Shown here in pieces: positions 2,972 to 61,516 of a DNA stretch of 64,000 bases. The notes below the pieces were generated by a model that saw only the letters and a program-made list of their open reading frames with translations, had not been told where the DNA came from and searched no databases. Every line of letters begins with the position of its first letter. The first letter of the stretch is position 1. This stretch comes from Candidatus Marinacidobacterium sp. (GTDB lineage: Bacteria > Acidobacteriota > Vicinamibacteria > Marinacidobacterales > Marinacidobacteraceae). The stretch lies in the NCBI GenBank assembly GCA_965204755.1, contig OZ242011.1:416001-480000 (forward strand), written 5' to 3'. Position numbers and translations under genes: made by a program.

Positions 2972-5900
2972 CCCCGCCGGCGGCCGGCGTCCCCGCCGCC
3001 GCCGAACGGCGCGGCTCGCCGCGCTCCTCCTCGCCCTCGCGGCCCCGCTCCCGCTCGGCGGAGCGCCCTCCCCGGCCCCCGCCGAGGAGAAGTTCGCCGC
3101 CCTGCGCTGGCGCCACATCGGCCCGGTGGGGAACCGCGTCTCCGCCGTCCACGGCGTCCCCGGCGACCCGAACACCTACTACTTCGGCGCCGCCTCCGGA
3201 GGGGTCTTCCGCAGCCGGGACGGCGGCGTCCGCTGGACCCCGGTCTTCGACGACCAGCCGGTGCTCTCGATCGGCGCCCTCGCCGTCTCCGCCGCCGACC
3301 CGCAGGTCGTCTGGGCGGGCACGGGCGAGGCCCACATCCGCAGCAATGTCTCGCTGGGCAACGGGGTGTACCGCTCCACGGACGGCGGCGACACCTGGAC
3401 CCACGCCGGGCTCGAGGCCACCGGGCGCATCTCCCGGATCGCGACGCACCCCGACGACCCGGACACCGCCTGGGTGGCGGCGCTCGGCCACCTCTACGGC
3501 CCGCAGCCGGAGCGCGGCGTCTTCCGCACCGAGGACGGCGGCGCCTCCTGGGAGCGCGTCCTCTTCGTGGACGAACACACCGGCGCCTCCGAGATCGTGG
3601 TCAGCCCGGCCAACCCGCGGCTCCTGTTCGCCGGGATGTGGCAGATGCGGATGTGGACCTGGGGCCGGGAGAGCGGCGGCCCGGGCAGCGGCATCTTCGT
3701 GAGCCGCGACTCCGGGGACACCTGGGAGCGCCTCGCGGGAAACGGCCTCCCCGCCCCGCCTTGGGGGAAGGTCGCGCTGGCCATGACCCCGGCCGACCCC
3801 CGCCGGCTCTACGCGCTCATCGAAACGAGTTCCAACGAGGACTTCGCCCCGCTCGACGAACAGGACGGCGTGCTCTGGCGCTCGGACGACGCCGGCGCGA
3901 CTTGGGACTTGGTGAGCCGCGACCACACGCTGATGCAGCGGCCGCACTACTACACCCGGGTCGTCGCGGCCCCGGACGACGCGGACGAAGCGCACTTCCT
4001 GGCCACGCGCCACACGACCACCCTGGACGGCGGCCTCACCACCTTCCTGAACGACTCCGGCGGCGACCACCACGACATGTGGATCGCCCCCGACCGGCCC
4101 GACCGGATGATCGTCGGACACGACGGCGGCGTCAGCATCTCCACGAACCGGGGAGAGACCTGGCTCCGCCCCAGGCTCCCGATCGCCCAGATGTACCATG
4201 TGTACGCCGACGACCGCATCCCCTATTCGGTCATGGGAAACCGTCAGGACGGCCCCTCGTCGCGCGGGCCGTCCAACAGCCTGACCGGCGGCCCGATCCC
4301 CGTCGGGGAGTGGCGCGCGGTCGGCGGCTGCGAATCGGGCTTCGCCATCCCCGACCCGAGCGACGCCGGCGTCATCTGGTCGGGCTGCTACGAAGGCATC
4401 CTCGAGAGGTTCGACGAGCGGACCGGCCAAGCGCGGAATGTGAGCGTCTGGCCGGACAACCCGGAGGGGTGGGCGGCGGCGGAACTCCGCGACCGGTTCC
4501 AGTGGACCTTCCCGGTGCACATCTCGCCGCATGACTCCGACCGGGTGTACGCCGGCAGCCAGCGGGTGCACCGCACCACGAACGGCGGCCAGAGTTGGGA
4601 GGCGATCAGCCCCGACCTGACCGACGACGACCCGGCGCTCCAGCAGAAGACCGGCGGCCTCACCTTCGACGATGTGAGCCCGACCTACGCCGCGGTCCTG
4701 TTCTCGATCGCCGAGTCGCCGCACACCGCCGGCGTCCTCTGGGCCGGCAGCAACGACGGGAAACTCCATGTCTCGCGAGACGACGGAGCGACTTGGACCG
4801 ATGTCTCCGACCGCCTGCCCGGCCTGCCCCCGCTCGGGACCTTCAGCAACATCGAACCCTCGCGCCGCGCCGCCGGAACCGCCTATGTGACCGTGGACCT
4901 CCACCAGGTCGGCGACACGACGACCTACGCCTACCGGACCACCGACTTCGGGGCGAGTTGGCGCCGGCTCGGCGAAGACCTGCCGAAGACCACCCACGGC
5001 TACGCCCACACCATCCGCGAAGACCCCGCCCGGCCGGGCCTCCTCTACCTCGGCACGGAGAACGCCGTCCGGGTCTCCTTCGACGACGGCGCGACTTTCG
5101 AGTCGCTGCAGTCCAACCTGCCCCACGCCCCGGTCCACTGGTTGACCGTGCAGGAGCGCTTCTCCGACCTGGTCGCCGCGACCTACGGCCGGGGCTTCTG
5201 GATCCTCGACGACCTGACCCCGCTCCGGGAGTGGGGCGAAGAGGTGGAGAGCGCCGACATCCACCTCTTCCAGCCCCGCGAGGCCTGGCGGTTCCGGATG
5301 CGGCAGGCGGCGATGTCCCAGCCCGAGGACCCCGGCGCCGGCGAGAACCCGCCCTACGGCGCCGCGCTCCACTACCGGCTGGGCGAGGCCCGGCCCGGCG
5401 GCGTCTCGCTGACGATCCTGGACAGCGAAGGCAACACCGTCCGCGCGCTCTCCGGCAGCGGCGAGGCCGGCCTCCACCGGGTGCATTGGGACCTGCGGAA
5501 CGAGCCCACCCGCCGCCCCCGGCTCCGGACGCCGCCGCTCGGCAGCAGGGAAGTCATCCTCCCGGCGCGCGGCTTCCGGCTGCTCACCGAGTCCCGCCCG
5601 GTCGCCACGCTGATGCCGCCGGGCCGCTACACCGTCCGGCTCACCGCCGGCGAAGTGACCGAGGAGCGGCCCCTCGAAGTGCGGGCCGACCCCGACTCGC
5701 CCGCCGGAGGCGCCGAGATCGCCGGCCAGGTCGAAGTCCTGCTACGGATCCAGGAGATGGTCACCCGGGTCGGGGAGATGATCGAGGAGATCGAGTGGCT
5801 GCGCCGCCAGACGGCGGAACGCCGGGCGGTCGGCGCGGCGCGGGTCTCCGCCGTGGAGACCGCCGCCGAAGAGTACGAGAGCGCGCTCCGGGAACTCGAA

Positions 5901-22739: not shown

Positions 22740-24270
22740 GACGCCGTGGAGGCCGTCCGCCTCAGCCTCGAGGGCCGGAACCTCGTCGAACCCGGGGACG
22801 CCTTCCAGATCCTCCGCGCCCTCCCCCACGGCCACGCCGCCGCCGCCCTCGGAACCCTCAAGCGCCTCCGACTGCCGGGCCTCCTCGACCGCAAGCGCTT
22901 CCGACCCCCGCGACCTCGCCCTCGCCCTCATCGCCGCCCGACTCCTCGCCCCCCGCCCCAGACTCGCCACCGCCCGGACCCTCGCGCCGGAGACCGCCTC
23001 CGCCTCCCTCGGCACCCTCCTCGATCTCGGGGAAGTGCGGTTACAGCCGGGACCGCAGGAGCAACACCCTGCAGATCGTCTTCGGCCTGCTCTGCTCCAA
23101 GGAGGGCTGCCCGGTCGCCGTCGAGGTCTTCCCCGGCAACACCGCCGACCCCGAGACGGTGGCCGCCCAGGTGGCCAAACTCCGCGACCGCTTCGGCCTC
23201 CGCCAACTGGTCCTGGTCGGCGACCGGGGGATGCTCACCGCCCGGCGCATCCGCGAGGACCTGAGCCCGGAGGAGGGCTTCCGCTGGGTCACCGCGCTGC
23301 GCTCCGCCGATATCCGCGCCCTGGTCGAAGCCGGCGCGGTGAACCCCTCCCTGTTCGACCGGCGGGACCTGGCCGAGATCTCCTCCGACCGCTACCCCGG
23401 GGAGCGCCTGGTGGTCTGCTTCAACCCCCGGCTCGCCGAGGAGCGCCGCCGCAAGCGCGAAGACCTGCTCGCCGCCACCGAGAAAGCGGCTGGAAGCCAT
23501 CGCCGCCGCCACCCGGCGCGAGCGCCGACCGCTGCGCGGCGCCGCCCGCATCGGAAAGCGCGTCGGCGCCCTCATCGGCCGCTTCAAGGTCGAAAAGCAC
23601 TTCCTCACCGAGATCACCGACGACTCCTTCGCCTTCCGCCGGAACGAAGACGCCATCGCCCGGGAACGGGCCCTCGACGGCTTCTACATCCTCCGCACCA
23701 ACGCCGAGCCCGAACTGCTCTCCACCGAACAGACCGTCCGCGCCTACAAGTCCCTCGCCTCGGTGGAGACCGCCTTCCGCAGCATGAAGTCCCTCGACCT
23801 CCAGGTCCGCCCCATCCACCACCGCCGCCCCGACCGGGTCCGTTCCCACATCTTCCTGTGCATGCTCGCCTACTACCTGGAATGGCACATGCGCCAGGCG
23901 CTCGCCCCCGTCCTGTTCCAGGACCACGACCGGGAGGCCGCCGAGCGCGAGCGCCCCTCCCCGGTCCAGCCCGCGCAGCGCTCCCCGGCGGCCAAGGCCA
24001 AGGTCGCCGCCCGCCGCACCCCGGAGGGGCTGCCGCTGCACGACTTCCCGACGCTGATCCAGCACCTCGGGACCCTCACCCTCAACACCGTCCGCGCCCC
24101 CAGCCGGAACGCCACCTTCCAGATGCGCGCGAACCCCACCCGGCTCCAGGCAAAGGCCTTCGACCTGCTCCGCCTTCCCGCCTCCGCGTAGCCAGAACCG
24201 AACACCCCCCGCCGCGCGGATCCCCGGTCCGTTCTCGGGCTTCTGACCTTTTGCCCCTTGGAACTTCCGG
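22740..24270 (+). mobile_element. Degenerate IS1634-family element (5'-truncated, frameshifted copy of 58816-60776)
   Basis: Near-identical DNA to the intact copy. Internal deletion near 23035, frameshifts near 22900 and 23483, terminal IR TGGAACTTCCGG ending at 24270 followed by CTAG. Confidence 0.88.
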
Positions 24271-57767: not shown

Positions 57768-57938
57768 CCCGCCCCGCCCGGCCTCGGAACCACCGGGCGG
57801 GCGCGACGAATGGCCGGGGCCGCGAGCCGCCGCGTCCGCCCGGTCAGCCGGCGCCAAGCCGAGCGCCCGGGCAGCCCCGATTCAGGCCCCGCCGGGAAAC
57901 CCGAAGAACGGGTGAACCGCTGACCCGGCGTCCGGATC

Positions 57939-58559
57939 GTGGAAGAACGCGCCGGCCCGGTTCGGGCCCCGAACCCCGGAAGGAACTGGACCCGGGGCCT
58001 GCCGGAAGACCTGAGCGAGAAGATCGACCGTGCCGACTACGACCAGGCCCGCACCACCGTCCGCTCCATCGTCGAAAGCCCGATCTTTGACCTGTTCCGA
58101 GCCGAGCCCCGAGGGGACATGCCCGTCGGCGTGTTGGACCGGCAGGTGTGCGAATGGATCGGAGCACGGACTTTTCTCGTTCGGCTCCCTGACCGCGTCA
58201 TGCACAAACAGGACGGCCGTCACGCCAACGCAGACCTGCCGGGCCATCCGGAACTCACCATGGACGACTATCGGCGCCTCCCGGCGCTCGTCGAACGCCC
58301 CGACTTCGTCTTCCGCGCCGAACCGCGTCGCTCGACCGGGATTGGCACGCTCGACCGCCGACTGAACTTGGTCCGCCAGGTTGACGGCCGGATCTACCAC
58401 CTCGTCGTCGAACGGCGGGCGACGGATCGGAGCGTGGAAGTCGTCAGCCTCCACCGAATCAAGGCCCCGAGAGTGAGGGCGAGGCTCGAACGAGCCGAAG
58501 TATTCCGACCTGTGGACTGGAAGAATTGGGACTGGAAGAACTGGGACTGGAAGGGATGA
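57939..58559 (+). CDS. Stand-alone putative RNase of the PBECR (Barnase/EndoU/Colicin/RelE-like) type
   Basis: KQ..H...HPELTMDDYRRLPALVERP followed by a beta-meander ending in VVSLHR; recalled as the pattern of MuF C-terminal PBECR2 domains. Confidence 0.6.
   Translation: MEERAGPVRAPNPGRNWTRGLPEDLSEKIDRADYDQARTTVRSIVESPIFDLFRAEPRGDMPVGVLDRQVCEWIGARTFLVRLPDRVMHKQDGRHANADLPGHPELTMDDYRRLPALVERPDFVFRAEPRRSTGIGTLDRRLNLVRQVDGRIYHLVVERRATDRSVEVVSLHRIKAPRVRARLERAEVFRPVDWKNWDWKNWDWKG
58514..58553 (+). repeat. 15-bp tandem repeat encoding (DWKNW)n tail
   Basis: GACTGGAAGAATTGG GACTGGAAGAACTGG GACTGGAAG. Confidence 0.9.
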
Positions 58560-58560
58560 G

Positions 58561-58718
58561 GCGGGACTGCGCCTGGTAGTCCCATGGGGCCGCCCGACGA
58601 GCACCGCGCTAACGCTCGCCGCTCGGAAGAACCGAGTCCTTTTGTCGGGTTGCCAGGCACCCCTCACCGCATCAGCGTATGCGTAGAGGCGACGGCCCTT
58701 GGGCGGATGCTAGCACGG
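58561..58718 (+). ncRNA. Putative structured RNA, repeat unit 1
   Basis: Several hairpins and possible long-range pairings; duplicated at 58764; G-U pairs favour the + strand. Confidence 0.5.
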
Positions 58719-58894
58719 GATCTGGTTGGCGGCGGGGCCGTAGCGAAACCGGAAGAGACGACAGCGGGACTGCGCCTGGTAGTCCCGCGGGGCCGCCCGA
58801 CGAGCACCGCGCTAACCGGAAGTTCCAAGGGGCAAGAGGCCAGAAGTCCAAGAAGGGACGGGGGATCCGGGAAGCGGGGGGTGTTCGGTTCTGG

Positions 58895-60631
58895 CTACGC
58901 GGAGGCGGGAAGGCGGAGCAGGTCGAAGGCCTTTGCCTGGAGCCGGGTGGGGTTCGCGCGCATCTGGAAGGTGGCGTTCCGGCTGGGGGCGCGGACGGTG
59001 TTGAGGGTGAGGGTCCCGAGGTGCTGGATCAGCGTCGGGAAGTCGTGCAGCGGCAGCCCCTCCGGGGTGCGGCGGGCGGCGACCTTGGCCTTGGCCGCCG
59101 GGGAGCGCTGCGCGGGCTGGACCGGGGAGGGGCGCTCGCGCTCGGCGGCCTCCCGGTCGTGGTCCTGGAACAGGACGGGGGCGAGCGCCTGGCGCATGTG
59201 CCATTCCAGGTAGTAGGCGAGCATGCACAGGAAGATGTGGGAACGGACCCGGTCGGGGCGGCGGTGGTGGATGGGGCGGACCTGGAGGTCGAGGGACTTC
59301 ATGCTGCGGAAGGCGGTCTCCACCGAGGCGAGGGACTTGTAGGCGCGGACGGTCTGTTCGGTGGAGAGGAGGTCGGGTTCGGCGTTGGTGCGGAGGATGT
59401 AGAAGCCGTCGAGGGCCCGTTCCCGGGCGATGGCGTCTTCGTTCCGGCGAAAGGCGAAGGAGTCGTCGGTGATCTCGGTGAGGAAGTGCTTTTCGACCTT
59501 GAAGCGGCCGATGAGGGCGCCGACGCGCTTTCCGATGCGGGCGGCGCCGCGCAGCGGGCGGCGCTCGCGCCGGGTGGCGGCGGCGATGGCCTCCAGCCGC
59601 TTCTCGGTGGCGGCGAGCAGGTCTTCGCGCTTGCGGCGGCGCTCCTCGGCGAGCCGGGGGTTGAAGCAGACCACCAGGCGCTCCCCGGGGTAGCGGTCGG
59701 AGGAGATCTCGGCCAGGTCCCGCCGGTCGAACAGGGTGGGGTTCACCGCGCCGGCTTCGACCAGGGCGCGGATGTCGGCGGAGCGCAGCGCGGTGACCCA
59801 GCGGAAGCCCTCCTCCGGGCTCAGGTCCTCGCGGATGCGCCGGGCGGTGAGCATCCCCCGGTCGCCGACCAGGACCAGTTGGCGGAGGCCGAAGCGGTCG
59901 CGGAGTTTGGCCACCTGGGCGGCCACCGTCCCGGGGTCGGCGGTGTTGCCGGGGAAGACCTCGACGGCGACCGGGCAGCCCTCCTTGGAGCAGAGCAGGC
60001 CGAAGACGATCTGCAGGGTGTTGCGCTTGCGGTCGCGGCTGTAGCCGCGCCGGGCCAGCGGGCAGCGTCGGCCCTCGAAGTAGGTGGAGGTGAGGTCGTA
60101 GAGGATGAGGGTGTTGTCGCGGAGGTGGCGGGCGGCCAGCCGGGTCTCGACGGCCTGCTGGCGGGCGCCGAGCCAGTCGAGGGCGGCGTAGAGCTCGTTC
60201 TCCTCGACTTCCCCGAGATCGAGGAGGGCGCCGAGGGAGGTGGAGGCGGTCTCCGGGGCGAGGGTCCGGGCGGTGGCGAGTTTGGAGCGGGGGGCGAGGA
60301 GTCGGGCGGCGATGAGGGCGAGGGCGAGGTCGCGGGGGCGGGAGCGGCGGCGGTCGAGGAGGGCGGGCAGTCCGAGGCGCTTGAGGGTTCCGAGGGCGGC
60401 GGCGGCGTGGCCGTGGGGGAGGGCGCGGAGGATCTGGAAGGCGTCCCCGGGTTCGACGAGGTTCCGGCCCTCGAGGCTGAGGCGGACGGCCTCCACGGCG
60501 TCGGGTTTCGCGCGGTGGAGGGGGGTGAGGTTGGCGAGGGTTCGCTTGCGGACTTTCCCGTTTTCGCGGAAGGACTCGCGGAGGAGGACGGTGGGCGGGG
60601 AGTTCCGGTTGGGGACGAACTCGACATACAT
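58895..60631 (-). CDS. IS1634-family DDE transposase
   Basis: MYVEFVPNRNSPPTVLLRESFRENGKVRKRTLANL, LYDLTSTYFEG, VGDRGM, YKSL..VETAFRSMK, VRSHIFLCMLAYYL. Confidence 0.93.
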   Translation of the reverse strand: MYVEFVPNRNSPPTVLLRESFRENGKVRKRTLANLTPLHRAKPDAVEAVRLSLEGRNLVEPGDAFQILRALPHGHAAAALGTLKRLGLPALLDRRRSRPRDLALALIAARLLAPRSKLATARTLAPETASTSLGALLDLGEVEENELYAALDWLGARQQAVETRLAARHLRDNTLILYDLTSTYFEGRRCPLARRGYSRDRKRNTLQIVFGLLCSKEGCPVAVEVFPGNTADPGTVAAQVAKLRDRFGLRQLVLVGDRGMLTARRIREDLSPEEGFRWVTALRSADIRALVEAGAVNPTLFDRRDLAEISSDRYPGERLVVCFNPRLAEERRRKREDLLAATEKRLEAIAAATRRERRPLRGAARIGKRVGALIGRFKVEKHFLTEITDDSFAFRRNEDAIARERALDGFYILRTNAEPDLLSTEQTVRAYKSLASVETAFRSMKSLDLQVRPIHHRRPDRVRSHIFLCMLAYYLEWHMRQALAPVLFQDHDREAAERERPSPVQPAQRSPAAKAKVAARRTPEGLPLHDFPTLIQHLGTLTLNTVRAPSRNATFQMRANPTRLQAKAFDLLRLPASA

Positions 60632-60638
60632 GGGCCGT

Positions 60639-60667
60639 ATTGTAGTGATAAACCATTCAGATATCAA
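60639..60667 (-). promoter_or_regulatory. Sigma-70 promoter of the transposase (likely leaderless mRNA)
   Basis: TTGATA-N17-TACAAT, then 7 nt to the ATG at 60631. Confidence 0.65.
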
Positions 60668-60916
60668 CATCAACTATCAGGAGATGGCATATATACATGG
60701 CTACACCGTTGACTCGATCCTGCCGCAACGATCCGTAGGTCAACGACTTATCTCGAAACCCGGCTGGAACTTCCGGCTAACGCTCGCCGCTCGGAAGAAC
60801 CGAGTCCTTTTTCGGGTTGCCAGGCACCCCTCACCGCATCAGCGGAAGCGTAGAGGAGGACGGCCCTTGGGCGGATAGTAGCCCGGCGTCGCGATCGGCG
60901 GCGGGCCGGCTGACGG

Positions 60917-61516
60917 TCAGGCTTCGTCGGGTTCCGGTTTCGTTTCCGCGGGGTCCTTCGCGGCGTCGGGACGGCGGAGGGCGCCGTCGACGCCGGAGTC
61001 GCGTTCCAGGACGCGGCCGTAGAGCCAGAGGAGGTCGGAGAGGCGGTTCACGAAGGCGAGGGTCTCCGGGGACGGAGCGGCGGCCTCGCCGCTCTCCGCC
61101 AGGCGGAAGAGGGCGCGTTCGGCGCGGCGGCAAGCCGTCCGGGCGAGATCGAACGCCGCCGCCGCCGTGTGGCCGCCGGGGAGCGCCCAGTCGGAGAGCA
61201 TCCCCTCGCGGGATTCGAGGCGGCGCACCTCGTCGGTGACTTCGGCGACGGCCTCCGCCGGGACGCCGCGGGCGCCGGCGGCCGGTTCGGCGGATGCCGG
61301 GGCGCCGATGGAGGCGGAGACCCCGAACAGCAGTCGCTGCAGGTCTTCGGCGCGGCGGCGGATCTCCGGCGAGGGCGCGAGGGAGCGGGCGAAGCCGATC
61401 GCGGAGACCAACTCGTCGAGGGCGCCGAGCGCTTCGACGGCGGCGGACGCCTTCGACACCCGGCGGTCGCCGAGTTGCGTCCGGCCGGTGTCCCCGAGCG
61501 TCGTGGAGATGCTCAC
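60917..61516 (-). CDS. PduO-type cob(I)alamin adenosyltransferase
   Basis: TTLGDTGRT, EALGALDEL, RTACRRAER, NRLSDLLW. Confidence 0.9.
   Translation of the reverse strand: MSISTTLGDTGRTQLGDRRVSKASAAVEALGALDELVSAIGFARSLAPSPEIRRRAEDLQRLLFGVSASIGAPASAEPAAGARGVPAEAVAEVTDEVRRLESREGMLSDWALPGGHTAAAAFDLARTACRRAERALFRLAESGEAAAPSPETLAFVNRLSDLLWLYGRVLERDSGVDGALRRPDAAKDPAETKPEPDEA

Follow-up and report, generated by a model that had tools for sequence, protein, structure and literature searches.

Bacterial RNAs that fold into complex shapes and have a dedicated protein partner are rare finds. IscB and TnpB are nucleases whose genes lie on mobile elements and adjoin a large structured omega RNA; tandem arrays are, to our knowledge, not a feature of these systems. 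For phage MuF toxins, protein immunity is the only kind we know of. In type III toxin–antitoxin systems (ToxIN, CptIN, and TenpIN), short RNA repeats (36 nt in ToxI) are encoded upstream of the toxin, a terminator lies between the two, and the toxins form three ToxN-like families (excerpted text of PMC3401426). MuF polymorphic toxins combine an N-terminal MuF domain with a variable C-terminal toxin-type domain, and 89.4% of 191 such genes have a small putative immunity ORF next downstream (Jamet et al. 2017; excerpted text of PMC5576092). PBECR or MuF-C domains (PF18812) occur in phage polyvalent proteins. One histidine defines five of six PBECR families, phage Mu's own MuF-C domain is predicted to be inactive, and the inactive PBECR domain of Mu gp30 is predicted to bind RNA; these excerpts mention no RNA partner of PBECR domains (Iyer et al. 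2017; excerpted text of PMC5512222).

Here we describe a locus of Candidatus Marinacidobacterium sp. (GCA_965204755.1) that shares features with each of these systems and differs from each. The window, that is, the whole stretch of DNA analyzed, comprises 64,000 nt (contig OZ242011.1, 416,001–480,000, forward strand), and positions are window-based. Like type III systems, the locus has a protein of the endoRNase kind beside a same-strand tandem array of structured RNAs; the modules are multicopy and dispersed, and a link to phage conflict is plausible. However, the RNA units are about 165 nt long, contain seven helices, and lie downstream of the gene with no terminator between them, which differs from the arrangement in the excerpts of PMC3401426 and, at about five times the length of known type III antitoxin units, counts against an inhibitory role for the RNA. 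The protein is BECR-like by fold match and not of the ToxN, CptN, or TenpN kind, and none of five family proteins matched a PADLOC model. By the features that define type III systems of the ToxIN type, the locus does not qualify as one.

As in MuF polymorphic toxins, an N-terminal MuF domain is joined to a variable C-terminal toxin-type domain, and one copy lies in a Mu-like packaging module. Unlike the genes covered by the excerpts of PMC5576092, those described here have a noncoding RNA and not a small ORF as their downstream partner; most copies lie outside prophages and several lack the MuF domain. The likeness to PBECR domains as outlined in the excerpts of PMC5512222 consists of the MuF fusion, sub-threshold PF18812 scores, a MuF C-terminal fold match, and BECR toxins as the best solved structures, yet no member reaches the Pfam cut-off and the histidine that defines PBECR is not invariant. 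With regard to position and size, the RNA resembles the omega RNAs, which are structured, about 150–200 nt long, and encoded 3′ of a nuclease gene that stems from a mobile element. The protein does not share its fold with IscB and TnpB, however, there is no guide segment, and Rfam gave no match to omega RNAs. Our best reading, to which we give somewhat less than an even chance, is that the RNA is an antitoxin or immunity factor that occupies the position of the MuF immunity ORF; transcription, binding, toxicity, and neutralization are what we infer from this arrangement.

The gene and its PBECR3-like domain

The ORF at 57939–58559 (+ strand; start GTG, stop TGA) encodes 206 aa, as the earlier note had described. 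That note had also called it an orphan PBECR-like RNase. The gene is better described as what remains of a MuF head-protein gene of the Mu type: truncated at its 5′ end, it retains only the 3′ part, which encodes the PBECR3-like domain. Similarity to a MuF-fused paralogue extends upstream of the ORF (57804–57938, + strand), beginning at 57804 for DNA and at 57855 for protein, and the protein similarity continues in the ORF's frame across an in-frame stop. The ORF has neither the MuF domain nor the adjacent portal gene that are features of MuF toxin modules. Orthologues are 200–208 aa long at 64–87% identity. The ORF is flanked by GAPDH on one side and by a convergent cobalamin adenosyltransferase gene on the other. 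The transposase of an insertion sequence (IS) is the only protein gene between the ORF and the latter, which agrees with the original observation that no immunity-protein gene is adjacent.

The window ORF matches Pfam PBECR3 (PF18812) with an E value of 0.016 and 15.5 bits, below the cut-off of 30. Paralogues and homologues score 15.6–24.7 bits, all of them under this curated threshold; one database homologue (P0015) bears a precomputed PF18812 label. Because no member reaches the cut-off, we use the name PBECR3-like and do not claim membership of PF18812 by Pfam's rule. In the MuF-fused paralogue the same domain is joined to Phage_Mu_F (E 2.8e-15), which is present in all ten long homologues, and MuF-fused forms match PHROG 220, "minor head protein and DNA pilot."

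A structure model of the ORF (pLDDT 81) gave 15 matches with E≤0.001 in a BFVD fold search, from 5.6e-8 for the best to 7.7e-4, with names that include "Phage MuF C-terminal domain-containing protein" and "Nuclease." In the BECR core fold, a helix precedes a sheet of four or five strands. Among solved structures, the top rows of VIA-align are all BECR/RelE-type RNase toxins, with Z scores of 5.3–3.9 that are under the tool's caution level of 8 (BrnT 5.3, CdiA-CT 5.0 and 4.8, colicin D 4.5, RelE 4.1). Foldseek against the PDB reached E values of 0.15 or worse, and a search of the family profile against the sequences of solved structures returned a single chance-level row (E 0.52). The earlier PBECR call is supported by the MuF-fused paralogue, the recurrent sub-threshold Pfam matches, the phage MuF-C fold match, and BECR/RelE top rows at modest Z. 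The domain is of the phage PBECR/MuF-C kind in both kinship and fold class.

K90 and Q91 do not vary among 27 homologues, and H103 occurs in at least 90% of them. H89 varies, and S170 is shared by every member of a set of 18 sequences but not by all 27. No histidine is invariant among the 27 homologues, which, like the predicted inactivity of phage Mu's MuF-C domain, casts doubt on catalytic competence and counts against a nuclease that needs an inhibitor.

A structured RNA downstream of the gene

The RNA begins 0–3 nt past the ORF's stop codon. Copy 1 is full length, about 165 nt (58560–58724, + strand; covariance-model match of 144.4 bits, E 5.7e-40). Comparison of copies yields, on the + strand of the window, a hairpin P1 at 58563–58583 (58563–58570/58576–58583), followed by a long-range stem P2 spanning 58586–58699 (58586–58593/58692–58699). 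P2 encloses P3 (58595–58602/58614–58621), P4 (58622–58626/58632–58636), P7 (58637–58640/58687–58690), P5 (58646–58650/58659–58663), and the variable hairpin P6 (within 58664–58686). A 3′ tail (58700–58724) contains a conserved UAGC motif 11–14 nt past P2, present as UA(G/A)C in 41 of 50 copies.

Single-sequence folding energy is uninformative at 68% GC (z of 0.22 and −0.08 on the two strands), and support for the structure hence comes from the comparison of copies. In a set of 50 copies, drawn from five genomes, 90.9% of the cells are paired versus 34–52% in controls with slid partners. Compensatory, double-sided changes occur in 20 pairs (4–8 in the controls) and in 97 cells (5–15 in the controls). 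Every nested helix contains at least one compensatory pair in this set, and P1, P2, and P4 were recovered de novo from an alignment that was not fitted to the structure. In P1, for example, an A-U pair is replaced by G-C in 6 of the 50 copies. G-U pairs are found at two positions in 50/50 and 48/50 copies, and so the fold is possible on the gene-sense strand only, the orientation originally proposed. The expectation that a conserved, covarying element would be found downstream of homologues has been borne out.

Four of the pairings suggested at first were kept, with covariation: GGGACTGC/GTAGTCCC is P1, GGGGCCG/CGGCCCT is P2, GAGC/GCTC is part of P3, and CTCGG/CCGAG is P4. The enclosing CCCGA/TCGGG stem and the outer CCTC/GAGG stem were rejected, since they are not conserved (66.9% paired, a value reached by 350 of 500 shuffles). 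The proposed complementarity GCCTGG/CCAGGC, between the loop of P1 (58571–58575) and that of P5 (58654–58658), is present in 98.8% of the cells and broken in three. It never covaries in the 50 copies, which counts against an inhibitor that depends on this kissing contact.

No Rfam 15 covariance model matches the element at E≤1, neither in the window nor in the arrays of loci L032 and L008, and ARAGORN finds no tRNA or tmRNA. A tRNA-like or hammerhead-like reading is therefore unsupported; a CUGAUG-like string occurs in some copies only. A small ORF was also rejected, since at most 33 of the 50 copies are open in any one frame and core length modulo 3 splits 22/14/14. The element is a genuine motif of structured RNA and new with respect to Rfam.

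The recurrence of the element downstream, split by an IS, is as the earlier note had stated. Positions 58561–58613 match 58764–58816 at 96%, and the rest of copy 1 (58608–58740) matches 60776–60908 at 100%, 94%, and 74% in three blocks. The 5′ part of copy 2 (58763–58816, + strand) contains P1, the 5′ strand of P2, and the start of P3 according to repeat comparison and the covariance model; its 3′ part (60782–60893, + strand, 3′ end approximate) is based on repeat comparison and a partial model match at 60759–60859. The IS between them (58817–60775, minus strand, 1959 bp) encodes a DDE_Tnp_1 transposase (ORF 58895–60673, minus strand) and has 11-bp terminal inverted repeats (58817–58827 and 60765–60775) and a 6-bp target duplication (58811–58816 and 60776–60781). 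In near-identical contigs from two other runs (X4, X11), 58810 is joined straight to 60776 without the IS, and hence copy 2 is intact in those samples.

One might take the locus for decaying prophage debris without present function, given that the gene is truncated and preceded by an in-frame stop and that an IS interrupts the second RNA copy in this strain. We find this barely credible. Every nested helix covaries, the truncated ORF is held at 200–208 aa in relatives down to 64% identity, and the gene–RNA pair has been kept across two genera.

Linkage and dispersal of gene and RNA

In its own genome the RNA lies directly 3′ of all four paralogues. In a sister genome it is found 16–104 nt downstream of nine out of ten matches with E≤1e-40, plus one fragment. 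In a second genus, a homologue with 33–36% protein identity lies right upstream of the RNA in all five fetched loci. The gene–RNA pairing is conserved across related marine bacteria of two genera, and the link is strong. Distant MuF homologues in ordinary Mu-like prophages occur without the RNA (model R1 finds nothing in L022–L024), and R1 does not match phage B23 (best E 0.33). A 21-mer scan of genome contigs yielded 11 loci (one named MAG); the same scan found the element neither in viral contigs nor in JGI metagenome contigs, and phage records did not match it. A protein-pattern scan of genome contigs gave no confirmed relative.

The earlier note had raised the prospect of a dispersed repeat unrelated to the gene. 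Copies are indeed scattered, 14 of them here and 32 in the sister genome, but the element is also tied to the gene family: 9 of the 14 and most of the 32 follow this one protein family. The other five copies here have no intact gene, and some of them lie right after unrelated genes on the same strand, which weighs against an inhibitor. Arrays contain up to 6–7 units. The upstream gene varies from a full MuF gene through remnants of 165–213 aa and scraps of 38 aa to none at all, and some units consist of a gene 3′ fragment and the RNA.

One could argue from these copy numbers and variable gene extents that we are dealing mainly with a mobile or selfish repeat, which moves as DNA or via an RNA intermediate and carries different lengths of the upstream gene with it. 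This would explain shared 3′ ends, varying 5′ cut points, and tandem arrays, and it would fit the third-position GC content of the MuF genes (0.83–0.86 vs. 0.92–0.96 in their neighbors). It is nevertheless improbable, for the following reasons. First, the long-range compensatory pairs, like the conserved G-U pairs, suggest that selection acts on the gene-sense strand as a folded single strand. Second, no terminal inverted repeats bound the RNA unit. Third, of the five RNA-bearing genomes, two contain a single weak match to reverse transcriptase (PF00078) and the other three contain none. Fourth, the element was not found in the viral contigs, JGI metagenome contigs, or phage records. A reading of the repeated gene 3′ ends as DGR-like was rejected as well: by eye, differences between copies are not confined to adenines, and the reverse transcriptase is weak or missing.

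In most loci the RNA starts 3–13 nt past the stop codon, and some ORFs end within P1. Such proximity would be expected of a cis-acting element at the 3′ end of the transcript. It could protect the mRNA from 3′ exonucleases, mark a processing site, act like a terminator, or be a ribozyme that cleaves itself and so divides the array into units; none of these roles needs a specific protein contact. P4 and the U-rich tract that follows it have a terminator-like score, orphan copies stand right after unrelated same-strand genes, and an elaborate fold in which two loops do not vary would be in keeping with a ribozyme. Still, a general 3′ element should reach many gene families, whereas most copies follow one, and the link persists at 33–36% protein identity. 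A stabilizer needs neither a seven-helix fold nor arrays of up to 6–7 copies, and known ribozyme families in Rfam are unmatched. We consider a cis-acting role distinctly unlikely.

Only one module of this genome (C1:3967471–3968781) has a MuF domain beside a portal in a Mu-like packaging module. It is part of a late operon with the order gp27–terminase–portal–methylase–MuF, in which the methylase gene separates portal and MuF. This position counts against inhibition, because a lytic-phase protein has no obvious need of an inhibitor. It fits with the RNA as a ligand of an RNA-binding, catalytically weak or dead domain, i.e., as its cargo, scaffold, or cofactor, for example in a ribonucleoprotein that enters phage heads along with the MuF protein or accompanies the DNA on delivery. 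The same gene–RNA linkage would be expected, none of the 27 homologues' histidines is invariant, MuF-fused forms match the "DNA pilot" PHROG, and an RNA-binding role is predicted for the inactive domain of Mu gp30 (excerpted text of PMC5512222). Yet most modules are far from portal or head genes and outside prophages, and Portal_Mu, which has one match each in three of five genomes and none in two, is next to a module in this genome only. Truncated forms without the MuF domain are conserved, and a packaged cofactor is not expected in tandem arrays or orphan units. We regard a ligand role as unlikely.

A candidate RNA immunity factor

How could an RNA antitoxin have come about and work? The locus may be a gene–RNA module derived from Mu-like phages of this acidobacterial lineage, in which the C-terminal PBECR3-like domain of a MuF head protein was cut free and kept as an open, conserved ORF. 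Since the RNA starts so close to the stop codon in most loci, it is most likely made as a 3′ extension of the nuclease mRNA, and this putative transcript would often carry an array of 2–7 units. The RNA would fold into the P1 hairpin and a multi-helix junction closed by P2, probably locked by the kissing contact between the P1 and P5 loops. As the cognate partner it would restrain the nuclease domain in a type III-like manner, from the place that a small immunity ORF usually occupies in MuF polymorphic toxin loci. The near-invariant P1 hairpin and P5 loop may form the protein's recognition surface, and arrays would provide more RNA relative to protein.

Polymorphic toxin loci contain orphan cassettes of toxin tips and immunity genes, which units of a gene 3′ fragment and the RNA resemble. 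Units with a mere scrap of the gene's 3′ end could accordingly be retained orphan immunity cassettes. There is a fair, though less than even, chance that the system represents a new class, in which a large (about 165 nt) multi-helix RNA acts as antitoxin or immunity factor against a BECR-fold RNase borne by phage MuF head proteins. It would then be the first RNA "immunity gene" in a module of the polymorphic-toxin type and a protein–RNA toxin–antitoxin family with neither part related to those of ToxIN, CptIN, and TenpIN, and its arrays and orphan units would form a repertoire of RNA immunity.

Should the RNA restrain the nuclease, the logic of protein–RNA toxin–antitoxin systems would also apply to phage MuF toxins and to the large superfamily of BECR toxins, and the two partners would be a new RNA–protein recognition pair. 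The motif stands out by seven covarying helices, two near-invariant loops, tandem arrays, and its strict tie to one nuclease-type domain. Even with another role, such as ribonucleoprotein cargo, ribozyme, or mRNA element, it would be a new RNA family. Because its partner gene is already identified, the motif is directly testable in a laboratory host.

Further observations concern the sequence of P1. It shares 11 nt with the widely conserved "790" region of 16S rRNA, and the organism's own 16S differs at one of these; we considered rRNA mimicry and treat the resemblance as chance. A DCAW C-terminus, which is P1 read up to its TAG, occurs in 6 of 18 database homologues and speaks for the linkage of gene and RNA. 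The 3′ end of the window ORF contains a 15-nt tandem repeat of 2.7 copies (58514–58553, + strand) that codes for WDWKN repeats, and its unit is similar to the 5′ strand of P1.

The ORF and its split second unit

A GAPDH gene (Gp_dh_N and Gp_dh_C domains) ends 171 nt before the ORF at 57939–58559 (+; 206 aa), in a genome of 3.98 Mb on a single contig (the window is G000:C1:416001–480000). The ORF's downstream neighbor, on the opposite strand, is a cobalamin adenosyltransferase gene (60917–61516). A first copy of the RNA, placed by a covariance model at 58560–58724, immediately follows the stop codon. The earlier note had claimed that this element recurs downstream and is split there by an insertion sequence (IS). 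This proved correct: a second copy begins at 58763, agrees with the first at 96% over 54 nt, and picks up again at 60776, where three blocks match at 100%, 94%, and 74%. The intervening IS (58817–60775; 1959 bp) is bounded by 11-bp inverted ends, shows a 6-bp target duplication, and encodes a DDE_Tnp_1 transposase (E 1.6e-15). Elsewhere the genome carries a second full copy of it (G000:C1:704641–706599, 98.4%) and partial copies, one of them inside the window (~22740–24269). The IS is polymorphic between samples, as contigs from two other sequencing runs (X4 and X11) join 58810 directly to 60776; one IS-free contig is 20,880 nt long and has 4 differences across 57800–58810. Hence, the ancestral state is the ORF followed by two intact tandem units.

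A structured RNA found in one family

The window's genome holds 14 copies of the element, 13 intact and the one split by the IS. A 21-nt hairpin is near-invariant among the copies, and the remainder falls to ~70% identity. The covariance model was built from the 13 intact copies, and pairing statistics were computed on 50 full-length copies. In this 50-copy alignment, which is fitted to the model and hence biased toward the proposed structure, 90.9% of cells hold standard pairs, compared with 34–52% when the partners are slid. Both-sided changes occur at 20 of 42 pairs (4–8 in slid controls) and in 97 cells (5–15 in slid controls). For four of five measures none of 500 shuffles reached the observed value; for the fifth, further pair types, 49 of 500 did. 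A model-independent check, a MAFFT alignment of 24 copies folded with RNAalifold, recovered helices P1, P2, and P4, with 10 of 24 pairs compensated. Clean double changes in P1, P2, and P7 come from a second genus of the same family, P1 changes from A–U to G–C in 6 of the 50 copies, and P6 is a hairpin variable in both length and sequence.

G–U pairs are kept in P1 (50/50 copies) and P2 (48/50), so the folding strand is the gene's strand, and the earlier argument that such pairs make the element strand-specific and co-directional with the ORF stands. The loop–loop complementarity proposed in the same place is kept between the P1 and P5 loops in 98.8% of cells, but because these loops hardly vary a kissing contact is plausible but unproven. 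Two further stems suggested there (CCCGA/TCGGG and an outer CCTC/GAGG) are not conserved. A UA(G/A)C motif lies 11–14 nt 3′ of P2 in 41/50 copies.

Judged by sequence comparison, this is a structured RNA, and the motif is new. No Rfam family matches it, nor does it match tRNA or tmRNA. A reading as a small ORF was ruled out; the element is non-coding. A simple scan scored P4 plus the U-rich stretch 3′ of it as terminator-like (58621–58646 and 60789–60814), the region having three such sites versus 2.3 expected from shuffles. P1 (58571–58581) has 11 nt in common with the widely conserved "790" region of 16S rRNA, and the genome's own 16S (G000:C1:~2267070) differs at one of these. This resemblance is probably due to chance, with a rough expectation of a few in 100.

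In the genome_contigs collection the 21-mer occurs in one other species genome only, a MAG of Candidatus Marinacidobacterium sp., the window's own genus, with 29 exact matches in 11 loci (matches in G401 and G402 have identical coordinates and are counted as one sister genome). The covariance model finds 32 copies there. Within the second genus, 3 of 16 genomes carry the element, with 6 copies in all, and 73 genomes from other families gave no match.

Linkage to a PBECR3-like gene family

The RNA is tied to a nuclease-type gene family, as the earlier note had suspected for a single gene. In the window's genome it directly follows all four family genes, in 2, 1, 4, and 2 copies, which accounts for 9 of the 14. 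A protein profile search of the sister genome, independent of the RNA, gave 16 matches. At E≤1e-40 the RNA lies 16–104 nt downstream on the same strand for nine of ten, and it also follows one C-terminal fragment; none was found near the five weak matches. The sole exception at E≤1e-40 is the middle of three tandem MuF/PBECR-like genes (locus L027, 2485–7482), where the RNA follows the first and third. The second genus has a homologue (33–36% identity) directly upstream of the RNA in 5/5 loci examined out of six.

Distant MuF homologues from three further genomes of the phylum (of 400 searched) are without the RNA, as are two sequenced phages with F proteins 27–29% identical. The former belong to Mu-like prophages of the ordinary kind, downstream of a portal gene; at L023, the locus read in detail, the MuF gene is followed by a terminator. 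This prophage also carries a C4 antisense RNA at 3214–3292 (−) (RF01695, 56.9 bits, above the gathering score). In Alteromonadaceae phage B23 a 273-nt unannotated gap separates the F and I protein genes (L051, 3014–3286); the RNA model has no match in it.

The PBECR assignment of the earlier note held as kinship with phage MuF C-terminal domains; the match to Pfam PBECR3 is sub-threshold (E 0.016; 15.5 bits, where the cut-off is 30). Three paralogues in the genome are 40–49% identical to the ORF product, and in one (C1:3967471–3968781) a Phage_Mu_F domain (E 2.8e-15) precedes the PBECR3-like domain. Similarity to this paralogue reaches 57855 in protein and 57804 in DNA, upstream of the ORF's GTG and across an in-frame TGA. 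Hence, the ORF is a 5′-truncated MuF gene. The truncated length (200–208 aa) is retained in relatives to 64% identity; that the locus is debris we regard as highly improbable. Searched against 1.84 billion representatives, the domain family yields 427 members at E≤0.001, of which 13 reach E≤1e-30. Ten long members all carry Phage_Mu_F, and three of them a sub-threshold PBECR3. The MuF-fused forms match PHROG 220, "minor head protein and DNA pilot"; PADLOC gave no match for the family proteins.

An AlphaFold model of the ORF product (pLDDT 81, pTM 0.78) matches predicted phage proteins (MuF C-terminal domain, Nuclease, PolyVal) at E 5.6e-8 to 7.7e-4. Against solved structures Foldseek returns weak rows (best E 0.15, BrnT). 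An exhaustive aligner puts BECR/RelE-type RNase toxins on top, with every Z below the tool's caution level: BrnT 5.3, CdiA-CT 5.0, a Salmonella toxin 4.9, CdiA-CT 4.8, colicin D 4.5, and RelE 4.1. The theme of these matches is consistent, at Z scores under the caution level. Across the aligned family K90 and Q91 are invariant and H103 is nearly so, with no invariant histidine. A fair label is a PBECR3-like putative nuclease, probably with a BECR fold.

In most genes the stop codon begins 6–16 nt ahead of P1. In others the frame enters the RNA and twice stops at a TAG within P1; likewise, 6/18 database homologues end in DCAW, that is, they read through P1 to its TAG. The ORF's tail (58514–58553) contains a 15-nt unit, present in 2.7 copies and similar to the P1 5′ strand. 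This unit could pair with the P1 3′ strand instead; orthologues of the ORF end in DCAW. Such an arrangement may link the end of translation to how the first RNA unit folds. That the RNA is itself a cis-acting 3′ element or a ribozyme seems to us quite unlikely.

A possible partner RNA and its history

Among 191 MuF toxin genes, 89.4% have a small putative immunity ORF downstream of them (PMC5576092). In this clade alone, that place is taken by an RNA that is non-coding, structured, and often multi-copy. The simplest reading, by analogy with type III toxin–antitoxin systems and offered tentatively, makes the RNA a cognate partner that restrains the nuclease domain. It would be co-transcribed with the nuclease gene, perhaps cut into units, and recognized by the domain via the invariant P1 and P5 loops. 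A non-inhibitory role, with RNA and domain forming an RNP, is unlikely in our view; in its favor, RNA binding has been predicted for Mu's inactive MuF-C domain (Iyer et al., PMC5512222). This locus does not qualify as a member of the known type III families, which have short repeats upstream, a terminator between repeats and toxin gene, and ToxN-like toxins (PMC3401426). The best placement of the gene–RNA system, provisional and pending tests, is with the protein-RNase-plus-repeated-RNA kind. The literature searched, including the accessible parts of PMC5512222, PMC5576092, PMC3401426, and a 2026 BECR preprint, yielded no description of an RNA that partners MuF or PBECR proteins.

One module of the genome (L050, G000:C1:3963745–3973829) lies in a Mu-like late operon among pieces of a Mu-like prophage: Gp27, large terminase, Portal_Mu (E 8.5e-101), an N6_N4 methylase in a 745-aa frame between portal and MuF, MuF/PBECR, and the RNA. 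A repressor-like S24/HTH gene and then a Mu transposase follow 3′ of the RNA, which would fit the insertion of a second Mu-like element there. The remaining modules lie among ordinary genes, for example, peptidase S9 and a SpoIIE-type phosphatase, and none adjoins a portal gene. Third-position GC of these modules is lower than that of their neighbors.

At C1:3057645–3058863 a scrap of the gene's 3′ end precedes each RNA in four ~350-nt units; such a scrap also occurs in the second unit at C1:3895 and at the orphan C1:2042217 (38 aa kept). Other orphan units have no gene trace and adjoin unrelated genes. Polymorphic toxin loci carry orphan toxin-tip/immunity cassettes, and the pattern seen here, of shared 3′ ends with varied 5′ extents, resembles these. 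It could also suggest retroposition, but the five RNA-bearing genomes have weak matches to reverse transcriptase or none. That the element is a mobile repeat we consider very improbable. In the sister genome, N6_N4 DNA methylase genes lie directly after two RNA units (L033 4114–5706 (−); L035 446–2215 (−)), and a DUF5131 gene (L030 1693–2625 (−)) has an orphan unit on its downstream side. These neighbors may be shared phage-derived cargo.
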